From positions 43,929 through 107,928 of IMG/VR virus record IMGVR_UViG_3300011115_000717: a stretch of DNA of 64,000 nucleotides, one strand, 5' to 3'. The translations under genes and the position numbers were made by a program. Of the stretch, positions 8,163 to 62,878 are shown piece after piece (within the stretch, counting starts at the first letter, position 1; the number at the start of each line of letters is the position of its first letter). This DNA is from a virus. The notes beneath the pieces are model-generated. The model saw only the letters and a program-made list of their open reading frames with translations. It ran no database searches and was not told the DNA's origin.

Positions 8163-10349
8163 ATGGCTAGTTCTTTTAATACCATGAATGATATATCTAA
8201 ATCTATTAAACTAATTAAAGAGTGCCAATATTTAACTATTGGTTCTGATTATTTTATAGTAGATCATGTCTCCAATCCAACTACAATTAAAATAGGACAT
8301 GGATTCGGTGAGATCAAATTAAAAGATACCAAAAATAATGAATTTATTTTAAATGGTAATTTAAATAAAATTGGACAATTATTTAAACCAAATAATCTCT
8401 TTGAGGTTGTTGGTGGTTCGTCCTATATTTTAAAAACTAATATTGATACTTTTCAATTAAATAGCGAATGGAAAGAATTTCCTACAGCCACTTTGGTTGA
8501 ACAATTCATTGATGTTGGTGTTGGTGTTTCAAGTAAAATATTTGTTGAAAAGTCTTCAAATAAAGTTGTTAAATTTGTTGGTAATTTAAATAAAATAAAC
8601 AGTTTATTTGAAGAAATTCTTATTGCTCCTGTTACACCACATCCTGTTTTAATCGTAGAACAACAAAGATCCGTAAGAACTAAAACAATTCCCGGACCAA
8701 TTGGTCCAGTTGGTTTAGCTGGCGTTCAGGGTGAGATGGGTCCAACTGGTATTATTGGTACACCAGGTACCAAAGGAGATACTGGAGAAAAAGGAGACAA
8801 AGGTGACCAAGGAGACAAAGGCGATCAAGGAGAAATTGGACCCGTTGGTGAAATTGGTCCACCTGGTATACAGGGCATACAAGGAATACAAGGTCCACCT
8901 GGACAAGATGGTAGTGTCGGTCCTCAAGGTGATGTTGGACCTCAAGGATTGGTTGGTCCGCAAGGTATCCAAGGTAAACCAGGATCGAATGGACAGAATG
9001 GCAAAGATGGAATCCAGGGCGCGATTGGACCTCAAGGTCCGATGGGCGAAAAAGGAGATCGCGGCGAGAAAGGCGAAAAGGGAGATCGAGGCCAAAATGG
9101 TCTACAAGGAATCCCAGGAGTTGCCGGTACAGTTGGACAAAAAGGCGATAAAGGTGACAAAGGAGAGATAGGTCCTATAGGAATATCTCCTGTCATAACA
9201 GCCGAATATCCTGTTATATTAAAAGAAGGAAAAATTTCTTTTGATGCTCAAAAAATAACAGCACTACTTGATCAATTTAAAAATCAAGATATACAAAAAG
9301 CAATTGATAGTTTTGCAAAAACTGCTACACCAGGTGGTGGTGGTTTAGGTATTTTATTCCTAGGATCCAGAGTTTTAAAATCAGTTAATGATATTAATTT
9401 TACTGGTAGCGGTGTTACAGTTATACAACGTGGTAAAGGTGTAGAAGTAAATATTCCTGGTGGATCTGGTGGAGGTGGTGCAGTAAATAAAATTATTGCT
9501 GGTAGTGGAATTTTAGTTTCTCCTTCTGGTGGTACTGGTGATGTAACTATAACAAATCTGATATCTGTAAAGGCTACTGAAGGAACTATTCAAGTTGCTA
9601 ATGGTAGTGATTTATTTGGAGACTCGGGATTTAGATATAATTATTCGACAGATGGTTCGTTACAGACACCAAAATCTTTTAAATTGGGAACCCTAGATCC
9701 AGATAGTTTTTTACAGTTTCATGATGGATCACAACAATTTACAGCTGCCAACACCTTTACATATGGAACAACTGCATCACCTGGATTTACTCATGGTGAT
9801 CGGTGGATGTCTTCCGATACCGGTATTGAATATGTTTATGTCAATGATGGTAATACTCCGCAGTGGGTTCAGCCTACTAATACAAGTGGTGGGCAAGCAT
9901 ATTCTCCAGTATATGGTTCATTCTATGACACCACAACTCAAGGTGCTACTTTAGGTAATACTGGATATGCAATGACGTTTAATTCAACAGATTACTCAAA
10001 TGGGGTATCTATTGTAAGTAATAGTCGTATAACATTAGATTATACTGGAATATATAATGTTCAATTTTCTGCACAGTTGAATAAATCAACTGCTTCAAAG
10101 TCCCATATTGATATTTGGCTAAGAAAAAATGGAACAGATATATCAAATACAAATACTTCAATGTCTTTAGCCGGATCAGATGCTAAAACAGTAGCGGCAT
10201 GGAACTTTTTTGTAGGAGTGACTGCAGGAGATTATCTTCAACTTATGTGGGCTACAGATGATACAAATAGTAATATTTTATATCAGACCGCAACTTCTGT
10301 GCACCCAGCCACACCTTCCATCATTTTAACCGTAAATAAAACAAATTAA
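8163..10349 (+). CDS. Collagen triple-helix fibre protein with C-terminal C1q-like beta domain
   Basis: Long Gly-X-Y tract (~8690-9180), GDRW..DTG.EYVY..DG...QWV fibre module, YGSFYDTTTQ...IWLRKNG...AAWNF head. Confidence 0.8.
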   Translation: MASSFNTMNDISKSIKLIKECQYLTIGSDYFIVDHVSNPTTIKIGHGFGEIKLKDTKNNEFILNGNLNKIGQLFKPNNLFEVVGGSSYILKTNIDTFQLNSEWKEFPTATLVEQFIDVGVGVSSKIFVEKSSNKVVKFVGNLNKINSLFEEILIAPVTPHPVLIVEQQRSVRTKTIPGPIGPVGLAGVQGEMGPTGIIGTPGTKGDTGEKGDKGDQGDKGDQGEIGPVGEIGPPGIQGIQGIQGPPGQDGSVGPQGDVGPQGLVGPQGIQGKPGSNGQNGKDGIQGAIGPQGPMGEKGDRGEKGEKGDRGQNGLQGIPGVAGTVGQKGDKGDKGEIGPIGISPVITAEYPVILKEGKISFDAQKITALLDQFKNQDIQKAIDSFAKTATPGGGGLGILFLGSRVLKSVNDINFTGSGVTVIQRGKGVEVNIPGGSGGGGAVNKIIAGSGILVSPSGGTGDVTITNLISVKATEGTIQVANGSDLFGDSGFRYNYSTDGSLQTPKSFKLGTLDPDSFLQFHDGSQQFTAANTFTYGTTASPGFTHGDRWMSSDTGIEYVYVNDGNTPQWVQPTNTSGGQAYSPVYGSFYDTTTQGATLGNTGYAMTFNSTDYSNGVSIVSNSRITLDYTGIYNVQFSAQLNKSTASKSHIDIWLRKNGTDISNTNTSMSLAGSDAKTVAAWNFFVGVTAGDYLQLMWATDDTNSNILYQTATSVHPATPSIILTVNKTN

Positions 10350-27239: not shown

Positions 27240-27246
27240 ATCATGT

Positions 27247-27320
27247 TCCTTGGTAGCTCAGTTGGTAGAAGCGCGAAACTGTTAATTTCGATGTCGCTGG
27301 TTCGAATCCAGCCCGAGGAG
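27247..27320 (+). tRNA. tRNA-Asn(GTT)
   Basis: Acceptor TCCTTGG/CCGAGGA, anticodon arm CGAAA-CTGTTAA-TTTCG, T-arm GCTGG-TTCGAAT-CCAGC; CCA not encoded. Confidence 0.93.
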
Positions 27321-27328
27321 TTTAAATT

Positions 27329-33400: not shown

Positions 33401-33440
33401 GTTGTAATGTTACGTGTGTTTTGCTATAATAGAGATACAA

Positions 33441-34115
33441 GTGTTACCTGTTAAAAAATTTATACATAATCGTTTAGACATTAATGGTAGTCTTCAGGAA
33501 GAAACAACTCGCACTGGTCGCTCTTACAGCACACCAGAAGGAGTTTTTCCATCTGTGACTACTGTTGTTGGTTTTGAAAAACAAAAGTTTTTTGCTAAAT
33601 GGCGAGCAAATAATGCAACTGAAAGTTTGCGTGTAACTACACGGGGAACAGATTTTCATGGTATTATTGAAGACTACATGAATAATAAAGAGATTGACTT
33701 TGATAAAATGATGCCAAATATGGTAGATATTTTTATTAAAATTCAACCTTTGTTACACAGAATTGATAATATTAGATTACTCGAAGCTCCTCTATGGTCA
33801 TCTTTACTGGGTTTAGCCGGAAGAACAGATTGTATTGCTGATTTTGATGGTGAGTTATCTATTATCGATTTTAAAGCAAGCACCAAAACAAAAAGATCAC
33901 AAGACATTGAAAATTACTTTCTACAAGCAACAGCCTATGCTATGATGCTACAAGAAAGAACCTCAATTAAAGTAAATAAATTTTCTATTTTAATTGCCTG
34001 TGAAAATGGAAGTAGTCAAGTCTTTGAAGGCAAACCGATTACTTATGTTAAAAAATTAAAAGAAATTATAGATCGATATAAGGAACATCAATATGTACAG
34101 AACCAGAATAGTTGA
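33441..34115 (+). CDS. PD-(D/E)xK exonuclease (T4-like cyanophage type)
   Basis: R.Y.TPEG.FPSVTTV, RGT.FH, LAGRTDCIADFDGELSIIDFK, YFLQ.TAYA. Confidence 0.9.
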   Translation: MLPVKKFIHNRLDINGSLQEETTRTGRSYSTPEGVFPSVTTVVGFEKQKFFAKWRANNATESLRVTTRGTDFHGIIEDYMNNKEIDFDKMMPNMVDIFIKIQPLLHRIDNIRLLEAPLWSSLLGLAGRTDCIADFDGELSIIDFKASTKTKRSQDIENYFLQATAYAMMLQERTSIKVNKFSILIACENGSSQVFEGKPITYVKKLKEIIDRYKEHQYVQNQNS

Positions 34116-34725
34116 GATAGAAGAACGAGTAAACAAAAAGAATACCAAACTTTGGTTCATGATGAATGAAAATTCTCGTGCACCTTTACACAGACAACAA
34201 TTCGTTACTGAAAATGGTGGACTATTCTACCAAAATGACAGAGGCGATTGGATGTGGAAAAATGACTTTATTGTGAAGAACGGTTACTGGTTACGTAAAC
34301 GTGAAACTGGTAAAGAAGTATTTTTTGAAAATATGAGTGAATTTTGCCGGTTACATGACTTGTCTATAGTTAAGATATGTGAAGTCATGAATGGCAAGCG
34401 TAAGAGTTATAAGGACTGGGAAGCAGTAGAAGTTCGTCCTGTAAAAGACGGTCCTGGGGGCAAAAAGAACGTTGGAGAAAATCCAGAAAACCGCCCTAAA
34501 TTTGAAACAGTTACACAAACGGCTATCTTTAAAAACTGGAAAACCAATGAAATTGTATTGGTGACTAACATACCTCAATTTGCTGCTCGTATCAAGGGTC
34601 AGGAGAAAGAACTGTATCAAGTAGCCCGAGGACAGAAAAAATTCTATAAAGAATGGACTTTGGCTACATCTACTACTCCCCCTGCCTGTATGCTTCCTAA
34701 AAAAGCTCCCAAGAAGGAATCCTAA
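34093..34725 (+). CDS. Protein with two NUMOD1-like DNA-binding repeats
   Basis: F.NM.EFCR...L....ICEV.NGKRKSYKDW and NIPQFA......LYQVARGQKKFYKEW. Confidence 0.65.
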   Translation: MYRTRIVEIEERVNKKNTKLWFMMNENSRAPLHRQQFVTENGGLFYQNDRGDWMWKNDFIVKNGYWLRKRETGKEVFFENMSEFCRLHDLSIVKICEVMNGKRKSYKDWEAVEVRPVKDGPGGKKNVGENPENRPKFETVTQTAIFKNWKTNEIVLVTNIPQFAARIKGQEKELYQVARGQKKFYKEWTLATSTTPPACMLPKKAPKKES

Positions 34726-39103: not shown

Positions 39104-39903
39104 ATCCATTAAATCTTATAATCCAACCATCAACAGTATACCATTTTGCTGAACTATTGAATAAACCATTTAATCAATATTCCGCATATACATCTGGTCT
39201 TATTGATAATAATGGTCAGATTACTAAAAAGAATGGTAGTATGGACGGTCTAGAGTACATTGCTATTCGTATGAAGTCTTTTCTAAAAGATCTTATGCCT
39301 GGTTCTACTAAATTCTTTTTACAGAGTTTATCGGGAACATTGAAGTTGTTTAACGAAGAGTTAAATCAAATGGGTATCGATAGAGATTCTGCAAATATGG
39401 TTTTAGAATGCTATCTTTTAGGCACCACAGAAGGTAAAGTTAGTTACCTTGATTATCTATTAGAAGAAGCTCAAGTAAGATATATCACAGAAGAGATGAG
39501 TGCAGGTGCTGCAGGTGGTATGGCATCTCCAGCACATACTAATTTACAAGGTGGTATTGGTGGAATTGATCGCCCCATGGGATTGATGTTTAATCGTAAG
39601 CGTCGAAGAAAAAGAAAATCTGCTAGAATTGTTGAAGCAAATATGGAATCCCCACAACAAAAGGCCAACCCTTATCTTCCGATTCAGGTTGACCCTTTGT
39701 ATTATGATGAACTAACGAGATCTCTTGCACCAGGTGGTGAACTTGACTTTGATCAAATTACTACACCAGAATTACAAAAATACTTAAAACGTCTTGGTGA
39801 GAGATCAAAGAACAAAACTGTATATGTGGTTGGAAATAACACACAACCACCTATGCAACTGAATCTTAATCGCTCAAGAAAGTCTTCGAAGAAACCTTCG
39901 TAG
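39100..39903 (+). CDS. Conserved T4-like hypothetical protein (gp30.3-like N-terminus)
   Basis: L.KPF....AY..GLID.NG motif; usually follows the preceding gene. Confidence 0.65.
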   Translation: MNPLNLIIQPSTVYHFAELLNKPFNQYSAYTSGLIDNNGQITKKNGSMDGLEYIAIRMKSFLKDLMPGSTKFFLQSLSGTLKLFNEELNQMGIDRDSANMVLECYLLGTTEGKVSYLDYLLEEAQVRYITEEMSAGAAGGMASPAHTNLQGGIGGIDRPMGLMFNRKRRRKRKSARIVEANMESPQQKANPYLPIQVDPLYYDELTRSLAPGGELDFDQITTPELQKYLKRLGERSKNKTVYVVGNNTQPPMQLNLNRSRKSSKKPS

Positions 39904-40114
39904 ACTCTTGATATAACGGATGCCCAGATAGATAAGATTTAGTCATTAAAGAGCTCTTCTCTTTTTCTATAATATCTTTGTGACAATCATTATATCCTTG
40001 TTGATATTCTTCCTGAAGACTCTTGAGTTCATTAGGAAGTGTTCTGATGCCACGACCAGTCATACGGTCATCCCAACCTTCACGATATAACTTTCCTGGA
40101 ACATAATCAATCAT
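39866..40114 (-). CDS. Hypothetical protein
   Basis: Y.EGW...EYQQGYND; coupled to upstream ORF. Confidence 0.6.
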   Translation of the reverse strand: MIDYVPGKLYREGWDDRMTGRGIRTLPNELKSLQEEYQQGYNDCHKDIIEKEKSSLMTKSYLSGHPLYQESTKVSSKTFLSD

Positions 40115-40476
40115 TTGTTGTTTCTTTCTGCCATTGAAGCAAGAATCTTATCAATAGTACCAACGTACTCTGGATAATTGTTCATCTTAAAAAAGCCACG
40201 CATCTCTAATAGATGCTCATAATCCTTTTCAAAGATAACTACAAGACCACCGGAACCTGCTCCAGAATTTTGTAATTTATCTTGAAAATCATCAACCATT
40301 TTATGCCACTCTTGTTTTGAGATATTGGTCTTGTGTCTCTTCATGAACTCATCAAACTGATCATTAGTATCCATATCTGTATCCTTTAAATATTGTTTAA
40401 TTCGATTAATGTGCTTATACTTTTTATTATTATTAAACTCATCCCATGGTGACATATCATGATTGGGCTTTGACAT
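40111..40476 (-). CDS. Hypothetical protein
   Basis: Overlapping operon geometry. Confidence 0.65.
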   Translation of the reverse strand: MSKPNHDMSPWDEFNNNKKYKHINRIKQYLKDTDMDTNDQFDEFMKRHKTNISKQEWHKMVDDFQDKLQNSGAGSGGLVVIFEKDYEHLLEMRGFFKMNNYPEYVGTIDKILASMAERNNK

Positions 40477-40786
40477 TTTTATCTTTCTGTGTAAGATCGA
40501 AGAAATTCTCGTAAATCACAGTACCATCAGATGTGGTAGCAGAAAGATATCTGATATGCTGATTGAGAGCTTCTTTGAGAGTTAAGGGGTGATTAACACC
40601 AAAAGAAAAGTTCTTGATCCATGCTGGGCAACCACCCAATGTTATACGAACTTCTGTTCCATCAAGTGAGTTACCATAAAAATCAAAACTAGAATTATCA
40701 CCATCATAATAGGTAAAGAAACATTCAATGTTTTGATATTTGACTTTTAACGAATCCAAATCAATGGATTTAAACGATTTCTTCAT
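40457..40786 (-). CDS. Hypothetical protein
   Basis: F.YYDG..SFDFYG; ATGA coupling. Confidence 0.65.
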   Translation of the reverse strand: MKKSFKSIDLDSLKVKYQNIECFFTYYDGDNSSFDFYGNSLDGTEVRITLGGCPAWIKNFSFGVNHPLTLKEALNQHIRYLSATTSDGTVIYENFFDLTQKDKNVKAQS

Positions 40787-40947
40787 AGTCTAGCTTTCTG
40801 TACGACAAATGGAAGCTTTCCTTCACCAAGAAGAACCTTCAATGTTGACTTTTTAGCATCCATCATGCTTACTATACGATTGCGACGTAAACGTTCTTTA
40901 CGATTTTTGTGCTTTTTACTAGTAAGCCTTTGTTTCGAATTAGGCAT
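40783..40947 (-). CDS. Small very basic protein (54 aa, not in ORF track)
   Basis: AAGGA RBS; MPNSKQRLTSKKHKNRKERLRRNR...; stop overlaps next ATG. Confidence 0.65.
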   Translation of the reverse strand: MPNSKQRLTSKKHKNRKERLRRNRIVSMMDAKKSTLKVLLGEGKLPFVVQKARL

Positions 40948-40992
40948 ATAAATCCTTTATATAAAACTTTTAAAAACTAACAACTCTGTCTA

Positions 40993-41325
40993 TTATTTAT
41001 CTTGTGCAGCAAGCTTACATTCCAAATCAACAAGACGATCTAATAGTTCAGATAATGTATCACTGTCAAAAGTTTGTAATTTTTCTTCGAGTGATACAAT
41101 TTTATTTTCAAGATTTTGAATTTTAGTAGTAAATTCTTTGCATTTATCGTGAAAATATTGTATAGCGTGTTTATTATAATGATCTGGGTCAAGACCTTGT
41201 TTGTAATAATTATATTTGTCAGAAGTTTTGGCGACATATGAATTTGTCATTATCTTCTTTACGATTTCTTTGGCTTCTGTGTCTTCTATTACCAAATCAT
41301 TAATTGTAAGGTCAGTCTCGTTCAT
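40993..41325 (-). CDS. Coiled-coil hypothetical protein, leaderless
   Basis: TTGACA-16nt-TATAAT (41360-41333), 7 nt before ATG. Confidence 0.7.
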   Translation of the reverse strand: MNETDLTINDLVIEDTEAKEIVKKIMTNSYVAKTSDKYNYYKQGLDPDHYNKHAIQYFHDKCKEFTTKIQNLENKIVSLEEKLQTFDSDTLSELLDRLVDLECKLAAQDK

Positions 41326-41363
41326 ATGTTATATTATACACGATATATTATAGGTGTCAATAA

Positions 41364-41389
41364 CAAAGCCCTGCTTTCACAGGGCTTTG
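41364..41389 (-). terminator. Hairpin closing the tmRNA coding piece
   Basis: CAAAGCCCTG-loop-CAGGGCTTTG 10-bp stem. Confidence 0.7.
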
Positions 41390-41685
41390 GGTCGATTCAG
41401 ATGCGGGAGACCAAACCCCACTGCTTTAAGCAGCCATTGCTAATTGGTTAGCAATCATGGTTTGCAACTGTTTATTTGCGTTTCTTGTTACCCGAAACGG
41501 ACATCTCCTTCATCACTACTACTTGCCAATCGATACCTTAACGGGCCCTTAAGAAATGCCCCACTGCGGCGAGGACTTGGTTCGGCTTATCAGAAGTCGC
41601 AGAACATTCTGAATACACCTAATGGACCCGAGGGGAGTCGAACCCCTGTGTTGTGCAACTCTCGTTCCGATATCAACAATGTCAA
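41364..41685 (-). ncRNA. ssrA: Circularly permuted two-piece tmRNA; tag (A)ANQLAMAA
   Basis: On - strand the T-arm/acceptor 3' half (AGGGG-TTCGACT-CCCCT-CGGGTCC-A, ends 41623) precedes the 5' half (GGGCCCG-TTAAGGTATCGA, starts 41548); G3:U pair; pk1; tag frame 41452-41426. Confidence 0.9.
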
Positions 41686-41768
41686 TGCAAGAGGAGGGAT
41701 TCGAACCTTCGTAGAAATAAATCATCACATTTACAGTGTGACCTCGTTGACCGCTTGAGTACTCTTGC
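41686..41768 (-). tRNA. tRNA-Tyr(GTA)
   Basis: Acceptor GCAAGAG/CTCTTGC-A, TCACA-CTGTAAA-TGTGA, long variable region, GGTTCGAATCC. Confidence 0.9.
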
Positions 41769-41772
41769 TTAA

Positions 41773-42063
41773 TTATTTAACAGTAATTTTAACTATGGCG
41801 TAATTCTTTTTATCTGATTCAACAAACATCAAAGAATCAATAATTCTATTGTCGGGAATAGATGCTTCTCTTGCTGACATACCAACTTCAAGATATGGTC
41901 CACCTTCAAAGTCAACCATAGTATTATCCGTAGTTCCTCGTGTAAACAAGGTTTCACCTTCAAGAAGGTAAGTGTAGCTATTCACCTTTCGAATTATTCT
42001 TTCGACGTGATAACGGCTTATGCTTCTTGCTATTACTGGATTTTCTTTTTGTGGCTTTAACAT
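41773..42063 (-). CDS. Hypothetical protein (paralog of 20059-20361)
   Basis: SRY..ER...Y.LEGETLFTR...DFEGGP. Confidence 0.7.
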   Translation of the reverse strand: MLKPQKENPVIARSISRYHVERIIRKVNSYTYLLEGETLFTRGTTDNTMVDFEGGPYLEVGMSAREASIPDNRIIDSLMFVESDKKNYAIVKITVK

Positions 42064-42157
42064 CTTTTTTAAAAATTTCATCCCAATTTTTACACCAGGA
42101 TGCATAATTCACATGTCGATATGAATCGCCTTTACCTGCACCATGGGTTCCTTCCAT
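41978..42157 (-). CDS. Small basic protein GKGD..R...NWD.IF family (59 aa, not in ORF track), leaderless
   Basis: TTGACT-16nt-TATAAT (42192-42165); MEGTHGAGKGDSYRHVNYASWCKNWDEIFKK. Confidence 0.7.
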   Translation of the reverse strand: MEGTHGAGKGDSYRHVNYASWCKNWDEIFKKDVKATKRKSSNSKKHKPLSRRKNNSKGE

Positions 42158-42195
42158 GATGTATATTATATACTATAACTCTTAAAAGTCAAGAG

Positions 42196-42426
42196 TTAAT
42201 TTAATTCGTATACAGCCATAGTACCAGTATTAGTAAAGGACTTTACATATACTGGAAAAATTGAATTTCCGACACCAAGAGCCAAAACAATTGTTGTGGT
42301 TGCCCCAGTAGCATCAATACAAGTAAAAGTAATTGATCCAGCCACAGTACATGTAACTAAAACACCTTTATTTGCGGGACTGCTTACACCTGACGATAAT
42401 GCTTTAATACGGCGATATGTTCTCAT
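42196..42426 (-). CDS. Small beta-rich putative virion protein
   Basis: KGVLV...AG.I...G...FPV.VK; late operon with 42439-42828. Confidence 0.6.
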   Translation of the reverse strand: MRTYRRIKALSSGVSSPANKGVLVTCTVAGSITFTCIDATGATTTIVLALGVGNSIFPVYVKSFTNTGTMAVYELN

Positions 42427-42438
42427 TTGTTATGTTCC

Positions 42439-42828
42439 TTAAAAGAAGACGTGAATTTTACAATTAGTGCCAACTGTATGATCTGGATATGCTGGGTCAG
42501 CGGCTACAAGTAACATAGGATAAAACGTAGTAGTTATAACACCTGCATTAGATAGTAATATCGAATTATCTTCTAATATACCTATACCAGCATTTAACCC
42601 CGCAGCAGATAAATTATATGAAGGATCAAAAGTACTAATAGCTTTATGTGCTACATTTGATTCAGTCCCTGTTGGACTTAAAACTGTTAAATTTAATGTA
42701 GCTTGGTTTCCACTACCATCAATACCAGGAACAACTAAAAAACCCTTCATATTGGGTTGTGTTATTCTAGTAAGTGTTGAAAAACTATATGTCTCTACTC
42801 TACGAAAGTATGATTCTTCTTCGTTCAT
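42439..42828 (-). CDS. Hypothetical late protein
   Basis: CTAAATA on - strand at 42837-42843; RR.......KG.LV N-terminal similarity to downstream gene. Confidence 0.6.
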   Translation of the reverse strand: MNEEESYFRRVETYSFSTLTRITQPNMKGFLVVPGIDGSGNQATLNLTVLSPTGTESNVAHKAISTFDPSYNLSAAGLNAGIGILEDNSILLSNAGVITTTFYPMLLVAADPAYPDHTVGTNCKIHVFF

Positions 42829-42836
42829 TGCACTAA

Positions 42837-42855
42837 TATTTAGCGATTATAAATA
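42837..42855. promoter_or_regulatory. Back-to-back late promoters
   Basis: CTAAATA (-) and TATAAATA (+) in a 32-bp intergenic gap. Confidence 0.7.
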
Positions 42856-42860
42856 ACTTC

Positions 42861-43193
42861 ATGGATCCATTCATTAAACAATACCAAGATCAAATTAACG
42901 AACTCAATGAACAAAATTTAGAGCTTGCAGAAGCTCTTGAAATTTATGATCAAATTTTAGAGTACATGGACCCCGTGTCTGATGCGATGTTAATCAACGA
43001 GGCGAATGACGAGAAACATAAATTTAAAGCCAAATCTAAGAAAAATGCTAAGATGGAAGAGGCTTTAAAGGATAAGAAAAAAAATCCTGTTGATTCAGAC
43101 AAACTCGAAAAGGCATCTAAGAAGAGTGGCAAAGTTGGTCGCAGAGCCAAACTCGCTCAGATGCTGAAGAACTTCTCTAAGAACAAAAAGTAA
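42861..43193 (+). CDS. Late protein, acidic N-terminal coil and basic C-terminus
   Basis: LINEA site; KLEKA.KK.GK.G.RA.LAQ.LK basic module. Confidence 0.7.
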   Translation: MDPFIKQYQDQINELNEQNLELAEALEIYDQILEYMDPVSDAMLINEANDEKHKFKAKSKKNAKMEEALKDKKKNPVDSDKLEKASKKSGKVGRRAKLAQMLKNFSKNKK

Positions 43194-43203
43194 TATAACA
43201 ACA

Positions 43204-43223
43204 AGGCCCCGTAAGGGGCCTTG
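43204..43223. terminator. Hairpin between convergent genes
   Basis: AAGGCCCC-GTAA-GGGGCCTT. Confidence 0.75.
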
Positions 43224-43228
43224 AGTGT

Positions 43229-43435
43229 TTAAGAGACGTTGGCGATTGCTCGGTTTATAGCCGAAGAAATTCGACACAACTCTTCTTTAGAGCCAGTAAT
43301 AAAAACAACGTTCTTTCCTTCACCTTCAATAACCAAGTCAAACATGGTTTTATTGTCGTATGAAGGTTTCACTGAAACAATAAAAAGTTCTTCTGTGGTG
43401 TGAATTGCACTGCAAGTAGTAATAGTATTAGCCAT
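43229..43435 (-). CDS. Hypothetical protein
   Basis: ORF with AGGA upstream. Confidence 0.5.
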   Translation of the reverse strand: MANTITTCSAIHTTEELFIVSVKPSYDNKTMFDLVIEGEGKNVVFITGSKEELCRISSAINRAIANVS

Positions 43436-43503
43436 TGGGAATTTTCCTAGAGTCAAGAAACATAACAAAGTAAAACCGAACGATAAACGAAAGTTTGTTA
43501 AAT

Positions 43504-43752
43504 TTATTTTTTATTGTTTTTATCATTGTGTGTAAGCCATGCTTGTGACTCCCAAAATTTTTCAAGAGGCAGTTGTTTGTCATTTGGGCTATTGTGCCAT
43601 ATGCACCGCATTATACCCCCTACATCACATAATACCATGGCACACCAATCATCACAGTATCCATATTTGTTGATTTGTACCTGTAAATTATGTTTAGAAA
43701 CTTCCGTTTTAAAAGTTTCATACATTGGCGGAATTGTCTTTTTTCTTGCCAT
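43504..43752 (-). CDS. Hypothetical protein, leaderless
   Basis: TTGACA-16nt-TATAAT (43787-43760), 7 nt before ATG. Confidence 0.7.
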   Translation of the reverse strand: MARKKTIPPMYETFKTEVSKHNLQVQINKYGYCDDWCAMVLCDVGGIMRCIWHNSPNDKQLPLEKFWESQAWLTHNDKNNKK

Positions 43753-51646: not shown

Positions 51647-51759
51647 TTTAATTATCCGTTGGTAGTAGCATAAGACATAGTATGTATACAGTAAATCCAA
51701 CAGCAACCAATACATCTATACTTAAAATAATTATTCCGATTGTTGTGTTACTCATTCAG

Positions 51760-51834
51760 TGATCCTTACGGGATTTGAACCCGTGTTATAGCCTTGAAAG
51801 GGCTGTGTCCTTGACCGGGCTAGACGAAAGGACC
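51760..51834 (-). tRNA. tRNA-Glu(TTC)
   Basis: GGTCCTT/AAGGATC-A, AGCC-CTTTCAA-GGCT, ACGGG-TTCAAAT-CCCGT. Confidence 0.9.
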
Positions 51835-61129: not shown

Positions 61130-61205
61130 TAGAAGGGGCGGGAGTTGCACCCACATATTCGCGCTTATAAGGCACGCGCTCTAACTACAATTCAGCCACC
61201 CTTCT
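61130..61205 (-). tRNA. tRNA-Ile(TAT)
   Basis: AGAAGGG/CCCTTCT-A, CGTGC-CTTATAA-GCGCG, GTGGG-TGCAACT-CCCGC (atypical T-loop). Confidence 0.8.
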
Positions 61206-61374
61206 GTATGACACTACTCTTACGGCGAGTGTCCAACCGGGCAACCATAGGTTACCTCTATACGGTTCCTAACCCGCTTCACGCTTGTCAGTTATGCCGT
61301 CAACCCGAATAAAGTATTATATTTTTTGTGGTGATATACATTACATTGTACCCTCTCCTATGTTGAAAGTCAAG

Positions 61375-61448
61375 CATTCCCGGTTGGACTCGAACCAACG
61401 ACATACAGATTAGAAATCTGTTACTCTATCCAACTGAGTTACGGGAAT
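61375..61448 (-). tRNA. tRNA-Arg(TCT)
   Basis: ATTCCCG/CGGGAAT-G, ACAGA-TTTCTAA-TCTGT, GTTGG-TTCGAGT-CCAAC. Confidence 0.92.
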
Positions 61449-61453
61449 AGAAG

Positions 61454-61526
61454 TAGCGCGGGTGGGACTCGAACCCACACTTGACAGATTTTAAGTCTGT
61501 TGACTCTGCCGTTGGTCTACCGCGCC
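61454..61526 (-). tRNA. tRNA-Leu(TAA) with short variable loop
   Basis: GGCGCGG/CCGCGCT-A, ACAGA-CTTAAAA-TCTGT, 5-nt V-loop, GTGGG-TTCGAGT-CCCAC. Confidence 0.88.
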
Positions 61527-62792: not shown

Positions 62793-62805
62793 TGTATCTC
62801 CTTAG

Positions 62806-62878
62806 TGGGATCGGTGGGGCTCGAACCCACGACCAAGAAATTAAAAGTTTCCTGCGCTACCAACTGCGCTACGATCCC
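62806..62878 (-). tRNA. tRNA-Lys(TTT)
   Basis: GGGATCG/CGATCCC-A, GGAAA-CTTTTAA-TTTCT, GTGGG-TTCGAGC-CCCAC. Confidence 0.93.

Follow-up and report, generated by a model that had tools for sequence, protein, structure and literature searches.

A probably functional two-piece tmRNA in an uncultured freshwater T4-like myovirus

Organisation of the tmRNA locus

The stretch of viral DNA analysed here (64,000 nucleotides; hereafter the window) carries on its minus strand a tRNA-Tyr gene and, immediately downstream of it, a circularly permuted tmRNA gene at positions 41365-41685. The window has a G+C content of 36% and corresponds to bases 43929-107928 of an IMG/VR virus record of 107,928 bases, with a CheckV completeness of ~59%. 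The ARAGORN prediction of a permuted tmRNA spans 41335-41715 (minus strand), and the general permuted tmRNA covariance model of Rfam (RF04321) is matched over its full length (model positions 1-213) with 73.2 bits, above its gathering cut-off of 47 (window E-value 3.8e-12). The match to two-piece tmRNA is far above chance level, and 13 scanned relatives from the same subfamily score 71-82 bits with this model. A phage-borne circularly permuted tmRNA had been proposed in an initial annotation made from the letters alone; the two detection methods agree with it, and each anatomical element that it listed was found in place on the minus strand in a letter-by-letter check.

All features of the transcription unit lie on the minus strand. 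A predicted sigma-70-like promoter (TTGACT-16-TATAAT, an 11/12 match to the consensus) is located at 42192-42165, and an open reading frame of 110 amino acids (42105-41773) lies between this promoter and the tRNA-Tyr gene. The tRNA-Tyr (anticodon GTA; 41686-41768), identified by tRNA detectors, belongs to the type with a long variable arm, does not have an encoded CCA and abuts the acceptor piece of the tmRNA with no spacer. Compensatory changes among relatives are present in its anticodon stem.

The tmRNA gene itself is arranged in the order acceptor piece, intervening segment, coding piece. The acceptor piece (63 nt; 41623-41685), which is nearly invariant in close relatives, contains the 5′ strands of helix 2 (GACAT, 41683-41679, and TTGCACAA, 41658-41651), the T-arm AGGGG/TTCGACT/CCCCT (41647-41631), the 3′ acceptor strand CGGGTCC (41630-41624) and the discriminator A73 (41623). 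TTA comes next, hence CCA is not encoded. The intervening segment (74 nt; 41549-41622), predicted to be excised during maturation, is diverged and variable in length in relatives. The coding piece (41389-41548) comprises the 5′ acceptor strand GGGCCCG (41548-41542), the corresponding helix 2 strands (41529-41523 and 41504-41500), the pseudoknot pk1 (CGTTTC/GAAACG plus GTAAC/GTTGC; 41499-41464), an 11-nt spacer, the tag reading frame, a stop-codon hairpin and a 3′ element. Between the two pieces, the acceptor strands form a stem of 7 bp including G3:U70, and TTGCACAA pairs with TTGGCAA in helix 2.

Beyond the coding piece, a terminator hairpin (AAAGCCCTG-TGAAAG-CAGGGCTTT, then GTTATT) occupies positions 41365-41388; relatives have a different hairpin and T-run. 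A perfect sigma-70 consensus promoter (TTGACA-16-TATAAT; 41333-41360) would serve the next gene (41325-40993) and would mark the end of the tmRNA unit.

Subfamily relatives and structural covariation

To gather relatives, the tag end GCAATGGCTGCTTAA was searched for in viral contigs and the matches were examined with ARAGORN, which yielded many permuted phage tmRNAs; this sample, selected by sequence patterns, is biased. With blastn, more than 25 viral contigs show 68-97% identity to the gene in the window. For the analysis of covariation, 16 distinct sequences were cut into acceptor and coding pieces, each piece was aligned with MAFFT, and the proposed pairs were counted.

The proposed secondary structure is well maintained across this set. 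Canonical pairs fill 98% of the pair cells in the 16 sequences, and compensatory double changes are found in 13 of the 46 proposed pairs, distributed over the acceptor stem (3), T-arm (2), helix 2a (3), helix 2c (2) and pk1 stem 1 (3). In slid controls, where the 3′ partner was moved by 1-3 columns, only 37-47% of cells pair and the number of compensatory pairs falls to 0-1. The acceptor stem exists in four variants, all able to pair, and pk1 stem 2 contains a change from U-G to C-G. The alanine identity elements G3:U70 and A73 do not vary (16/16 sequences). CCA is encoded in 0/16 parsed subfamily sequences, the discriminator being followed by TTA or TTC.

The proposed stop-codon hairpin and 3′ element (AGCAGUGGGG...UCCCGCAUCUGAA) are invariant in the 16 sequences. 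The post-stop stretch at 41389-41425 (AGCAGUGGGGUU ... UCCCGCAUCUGAA) is identical in all 16, and the helix that surrounds it covaries, being GGUC/GACC in the window and CCCGGUUUU/AAAACCGGG in others. This invariant stretch may form a pseudoknot or bind a protein.

A separate observation concerns the sequence directly upstream of the acceptor piece, where four relatives (L340, L356, L274 and L304) have CTAAATAAAAAT, a TAAATA box resembling a T4 late promoter. The window is without this box, its tRNA-Tyr abutting the tmRNA at this point, and expression may be timed differently from one relative to another.

The resume codon and the tag peptide

An alanine resume codon follows pk1 after a short single strand of 11 nt and opens the frame GCT AAC CAA TTA GCA ATG GCT GCT TAA (41426-41452, minus strand), which encodes ANQLAMAA, a tag with a hydrophobic ..AA end, and a stop. 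The distance between pk1 and the tag is 10-11 nt in the subfamily (10 in more distant relatives, 11 in the window), with GCU or GCC for resumption. The ANQLAMAA frame is supported because this spacer indel keeps only the frame GCY AAC ... GCA ATG GCT GCT TAA; as the only frame to survive in relatives, it supports the 8-codon tag first proposed. Variants of the tag are ANQLAMAA, ANELAMAA, ANEMAMAA, ANYMAMAA and AAPMAMAA, all of 8 codons, which follow the pattern A-N/A-x-L/M-A-M-A-A with conservative amino-acid variation.

Two other reading frames were considered and rejected. The 17-codon tag reported by ARAGORN, (A/V)NKQLQTMIANQLAMAA, begins with the codon GTA in 7 of the 8 closest sequences, and its frame is broken by a 1-nt indel in distant relatives. 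Aligning the gene to the betaproteobacterial model would give the frame GCA AAC CAT GAT TGC TAA (ANHDC*); the same indel breaks it, and its GCA falls within pk1 stem 2. The ARAGORN tag is thus wrong for the window and its closest relatives, a correction of benefit to annotation.

The intervening segment

The length of the intervening segment falls into several classes among relatives (39, 71-74, 95-98 and ~167 nt; for example L279, L340, L274 and L283:5323-5489). In the window it is predicted to fold into two hairpins, one with CUGCG in its loop and the other with CGCAG. Spacers of 71-98 nt have in common two hairpins with complementary loop motifs, CUGC and GCAG, and compensatory changes in their stems; those of 39 and 167 nt are without the two hairpins. 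The fold energy of the segment in the window is ordinary (z = -0.94), and comparison of the segment with Rfam gave no family match.

Relationship to known tmRNAs

Two-piece tmRNAs in phages have been described before. Buchholz et al. (2022) reported a two-piece ssrA gene in Melnitz, a phage of OM43 (Methylophilales) (PMC9004378), and isolate phage genomes contain 53 unique two-piece tmRNAs, of which 50 are aquatic (PMC9004378); a 2025 tmRNA database lists 79 phage sequences. The novelty implied by the initial annotation is therefore not upheld. The phage-borne two-piece tmRNA is of a kind already known, and the ANx(L/M)AMAA subfamily is a sizeable, uncultured part of it.

Melnitz, the pelagimyophages and some cyanophages resemble the virus in the window in having a permuted ssrA in an aquatic T4-like phage, with an early-type promoter and no integrase context (PMC9004378). 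Further parallels with Melnitz-type phages are the presumed use of host SmpB and a gene that is common, yet not universal, in the phage group (PMC9004378). In contrast to ssrA of the Melnitz type, the gene in the window is not alpha-type, has an 8-codon tag, does not encode CCA and comes from freshwater. As for the glutamine riboswitch, a Melnitz-type feature (PMC9004378), no riboswitch reached the gathering score in the window, and none was seen at E values up to 10 in 41200-41850. The present locus adds a well-supported freshwater case to the published marine phages with their own ribosome-rescue RNA.

Lineage-specific covariance models do not recognise the gene at their gathering scores. 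The alpha model (RF01849; gathering 50) has no match on the strand of the gene, its best score being 4.7 bits elsewhere. The cyanobacterial model (RF01851) gives 32.2 bits against a gathering score of 70 and the beta model (RF01850), still the best of the lineage models, 44.4 bits against 84. The scanned subfamily relatives likewise reach the gathering score of RF04321 alone, and 0 reach that of RF01850. Other phage copies do pass the lineage models: those passing the beta model have the tags ANDNYYAMAA, ANDSAFAMAA and ANANDYALAA, and those passing the alpha model ANLNFAMAA and AEFNFAMAA. Among 50,697 GenBank phage records, no member of the subfamily was found and no sequence match extended beyond the T-arm. 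For annotation, the 8-codon tag, the lack of an encoded CCA and the failure of clade-specific Rfam models to detect the gene are useful hallmarks of the subfamily.

Betaproteobacterial two-piece tmRNA was reportedly described by Sharkady and Williams in 2004. This form (RF01850) and its phage-borne copies share with the gene in the window the gene order, the ..AMAA end of the tag, and a hairpin and terminator hairpin after the tag; this post-tag layout can be aligned to the beta model. They differ in that the beta-type phage copies parsed encode CCA and have 10-codon ANDxxxAMAA tags, neither of which is true of the gene in the window. When profile HMMs built from the two pieces of the subfamily were used with nhmmer, the top match was L314, a beta-type two-piece phage gene that passes RF01850 with 109 bits, at 38.9 and 34.9 bits. 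Second place was taken by one-piece phage tmRNAs that carry the 8-codon tag ANTYAMAA, at 30.1 and 25.8 bits. The weight of evidence, taken from these sequence comparisons, favours descent of the subfamily, as a divergent branch, from beta-type two-piece tmRNA.

One-piece tmRNAs of phages, such as those of the mycobacteriophage Bxz1 group and Bacillus phage G (PMC4131195), are likewise phage-borne ssrA genes; they differ in their standard gene order and in retaining a pseudoknot-rich 3′ domain. Members of the ANTYAMAA group (L308, L310, L311, L326, L334, L345 and L351) carry no encoded CCA and have a TTA trailer.

Several features of this group could be explained by a permutation that arose within phages from a one-piece phage tmRNA, independently of the alpha, beta and cyanobacterial events and with the same mode of action. 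Its members have in common with the subfamily the CCA-less end with TTA trailer, the 8-codon tag style, the spacer ahead of the resume codon including AAUAAUU, the tag region, part of helix 2 and ~58 nt of the 3′ end, and the failure of the subfamily with all three lineage-specific models would also be in keeping with such a fourth event. However, the HMMs of both pieces rank the beta-type L314 above the one-piece group, the beta model is the best covariance lineage model, with the post-tag layout aligning to it, and the likeness to one-piece genes is explicable by shared host constraints or by exchange of modules between phages; the sample of relatives, drawn by pattern, is moreover biased. 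We therefore regard an independent permutation, raised as a possibility in the initial annotation, as unlikely, since the sequences outside the subfamily that come closest to it are two-piece phage tmRNAs of the beta type. A low probability likewise attaches to a broader proposal, in which the ANx(L/M)AMAA subfamily would be a phage-born fourth two-piece lineage, permuted from an ANTYAMAA-type gene and refitted to a CCA-less tRNA route, with the spacer as a site of exchange (39 to ~167 nt), at times filled by a structured RNA that has a function in its own right.

The tmRNA type of a phage need not equal that of its host, as found for Melnitz (PMC9004378), and in Planctomycetota, raised as a possible host group in the initial annotation, 1914 standard tmRNAs are listed against 1 permuted (PMC11915505, Supp. 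Table 2). A motif scan of genome contigs with a 24-mer from the T-arm and acceptor region returned no credible permuted bacterial copy; ARAGORN recognised no tmRNA in most of the matching stretches, which lie in many phyla, and a few were one-piece tmRNAs. The matches labelled 'Gammaproteobacteria' come from tiny genomes in which beta-type tmRNA is absent. The subfamily may explain stray 'beta-type permuted' tmRNA calls in metagenome-assembled genomes of unrelated phyla.

Maturation and proposed function

We consider it likely that the locus encodes a functional two-piece tmRNA of an uncultured freshwater T4-like myovirus, belonging to a phage-only subfamily closest to the beta-type. The experimental model for this proposal is the two-piece tmRNA of Caulobacter (RF01849), in which one precursor gives rise, after excision of a segment, to two base-paired pieces that are active in tagging; it is described as processed and active in work that is cited here through a later paper (Keiler, Shapiro and Williams, 2000, via PMC9004378). 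The gene in the window differs from it in having no detectable match to the alpha model.

By analogy, tRNA-Tyr and the tmRNA would share one transcript, probably initiated at the sigma-70-like early promoter (42192-42165) and ending at the hairpin at 41388-41365. Host RNase P would cut 5′ of G1 (41548), and cuts of the RNase Z/BN type after each discriminator would free the tRNA-Tyr, thereby exposing the acceptor piece at its 5′ end, and would trim the 3′ end of that piece at A73 (41623). CCA would then be added by the CCA-adding enzyme of the host, as for the CCA-less tRNAs of the phage itself, and the acceptor stem and helix 2 would hold the two pieces together. Judged from its sequence, the tmRNA unit looks early in expression, as reported for Melnitz (PMC9004378).

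The predicted maturation has a parallel in phage T4, whose tRNA cluster likewise yields CCA-less tRNA-like ends within a polycistronic stable-RNA transcript. These ends are finished by host RNase P, RNase BN/Z and the CCA-adding enzyme, and the CCA-less T4 tRNAs require host RNase BN and the CCA enzyme. To our knowledge, T4 has no tmRNA. In the virus studied here, 7/7 phage tRNA genes have no encoded CCA, and T-rich trailers follow most of them (27246-27321, 41686-41768, 51759-51834, 61130-61526 and 62805-62878). The phage would therefore rely on a CCA-adding enzyme, for which no gene was found in the 108 kb of this ~59%-complete record. The CCA-less end and TTA trailer of the tmRNA match these seven tRNAs, and the tmRNA would therefore fit the phage's own route of tRNA maturation.

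Once mature, the RNA would be charged with alanine by host AlaRS via G3:U70 and A73 and delivered to stalled ribosomes by host SmpB. The reliance on host SmpB that had been suggested at the outset is plausible: no SmpB gene was found in the 108 kb of the ~59%-complete record, and a phage SmpB elsewhere in the genome is possible. Translation would resume at GCU 41452, and the added ANQLAMAA would end in ..AA, as do C-terminal degrons recognised by Clp-type proteases. The likely benefit would be to keep ribosomes free during the degradation of host mRNA at the time of infection. That the RNA may also stand in for a cleaved host tmRNA, as the initial annotation put forward, is conjectural. Knowledge of trans-translation itself is unchanged by the finding.

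RNA-library contigs from three libraries touch the gene, which indicates presence only, as contigs cannot show RNA ends. One short contig among them (X15; 41391-41656) still contains the spacer and represents either precursor or carried-over DNA. Contig ends at 41391 were considered as RNA ends and rejected, since they coincide with a variant branch point.

A natural variant without the tmRNA was found in a close relative, L149 (IMGVR_UViG_3300042465_004012, 8303-8487). Its flanks are 94-95% identical to those in the window, and it has the tRNA-Tyr, 4 bases and the same terminator hairpin, and is precisely without the equivalent of window positions 41391-41683, the whole 293-nt tmRNA. This absence is most simply a deletion, because more distant relatives have both tRNA-Tyr and tmRNA. 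As L149 is near-identical and yet without the gene, the tmRNA is therefore accessory and dispensable. The two near-identical phages, which differ in the presence of the 293-nt gene, form a natural pair in which the advantage of a phage-borne tmRNA could be cleanly assessed.

Dispensability is also in keeping with a decoy, an RNA whose main effect would be to sequester SmpB or AlaRS of the host or to inhibit its trans-translation, with tagging irrelevant. The tag is very short, and there is precedent for an inhibitory phage molecule consisting of the tRNA-like domain only (PMC4131195, PMC11915505), a gene of this kind in mycobacteriophage DS6A having been proposed to act as such a decoy (PMC4131195). 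Nevertheless, conservation extends to pk1, the 10-11-nt spacer, the reading frame, its alanine resume codon and the ..AMAA end, where changes are compensatory or conservative, and a decoy would not need these tagging parts; this role is accordingly quite improbable, and a tmRNA active in tagging is preferred.

Independent assemblies bear on the reality of the permuted order itself. At least 8 IMG/VR contigs assembled from different samples show this order, and the layout of tRNA-Tyr and permuted tmRNA is shared by 7 of them besides the window. The initial annotation had raised the possibility of a mis-assembled one-piece gene, and here a Logan DNA contig spans acceptor piece, spacer and coding piece with 0 differences to the window; both spacer variants occur in independent assemblies. 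In an alignment of close relatives the two pieces are almost invariant, and the intervening segment is diverged and, in one group, 35 nt shorter. That the gene is a mis-assembled one-piece gene or a decaying pseudogene, for which its loss from L149 might be cited, is scarcely credible and already contradicted by the same order in many independent assemblies, strong purifying selection and covariation.

Genome context and distribution

The gene content points to a T4-like (Straboviridae/Kyanoviridae-type) myovirus, as a replication module of T4 type is present. The polymerase is of the gp43 type (phrog_262, E = 2.5e-256), with at most 42% identity to cyanomyophage gp43, and the contig also encodes an SbcC-like gp46 nuclease, a DnaB-like replicative helicase, RNR and tail-fibre proteins. 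The tmRNA stretch was found in lake, river and freshwater viral metagenomes from at least 10 studies. On these grounds, the carrier is assigned to the uncultured freshwater T4-like myoviruses.

Comparison of the small open reading frames flanking the tmRNA with PHROGs yielded no function. They stand in a larger minus-strand block (39866-43752) of small open reading frames without PHROG matches, interspersed with near-consensus sigma-70 promoters (42192-42165 and 41360-41333), which looks like a T4-style early region set between plus-strand genes. Elsewhere in the window, at 33414-34725, a gene for a Cas4/RecB-like exonuclease (phrog_298, E = 1e-60) overlaps the open reading frame after it, which encodes an HNH endonuclease (phrog_2081).
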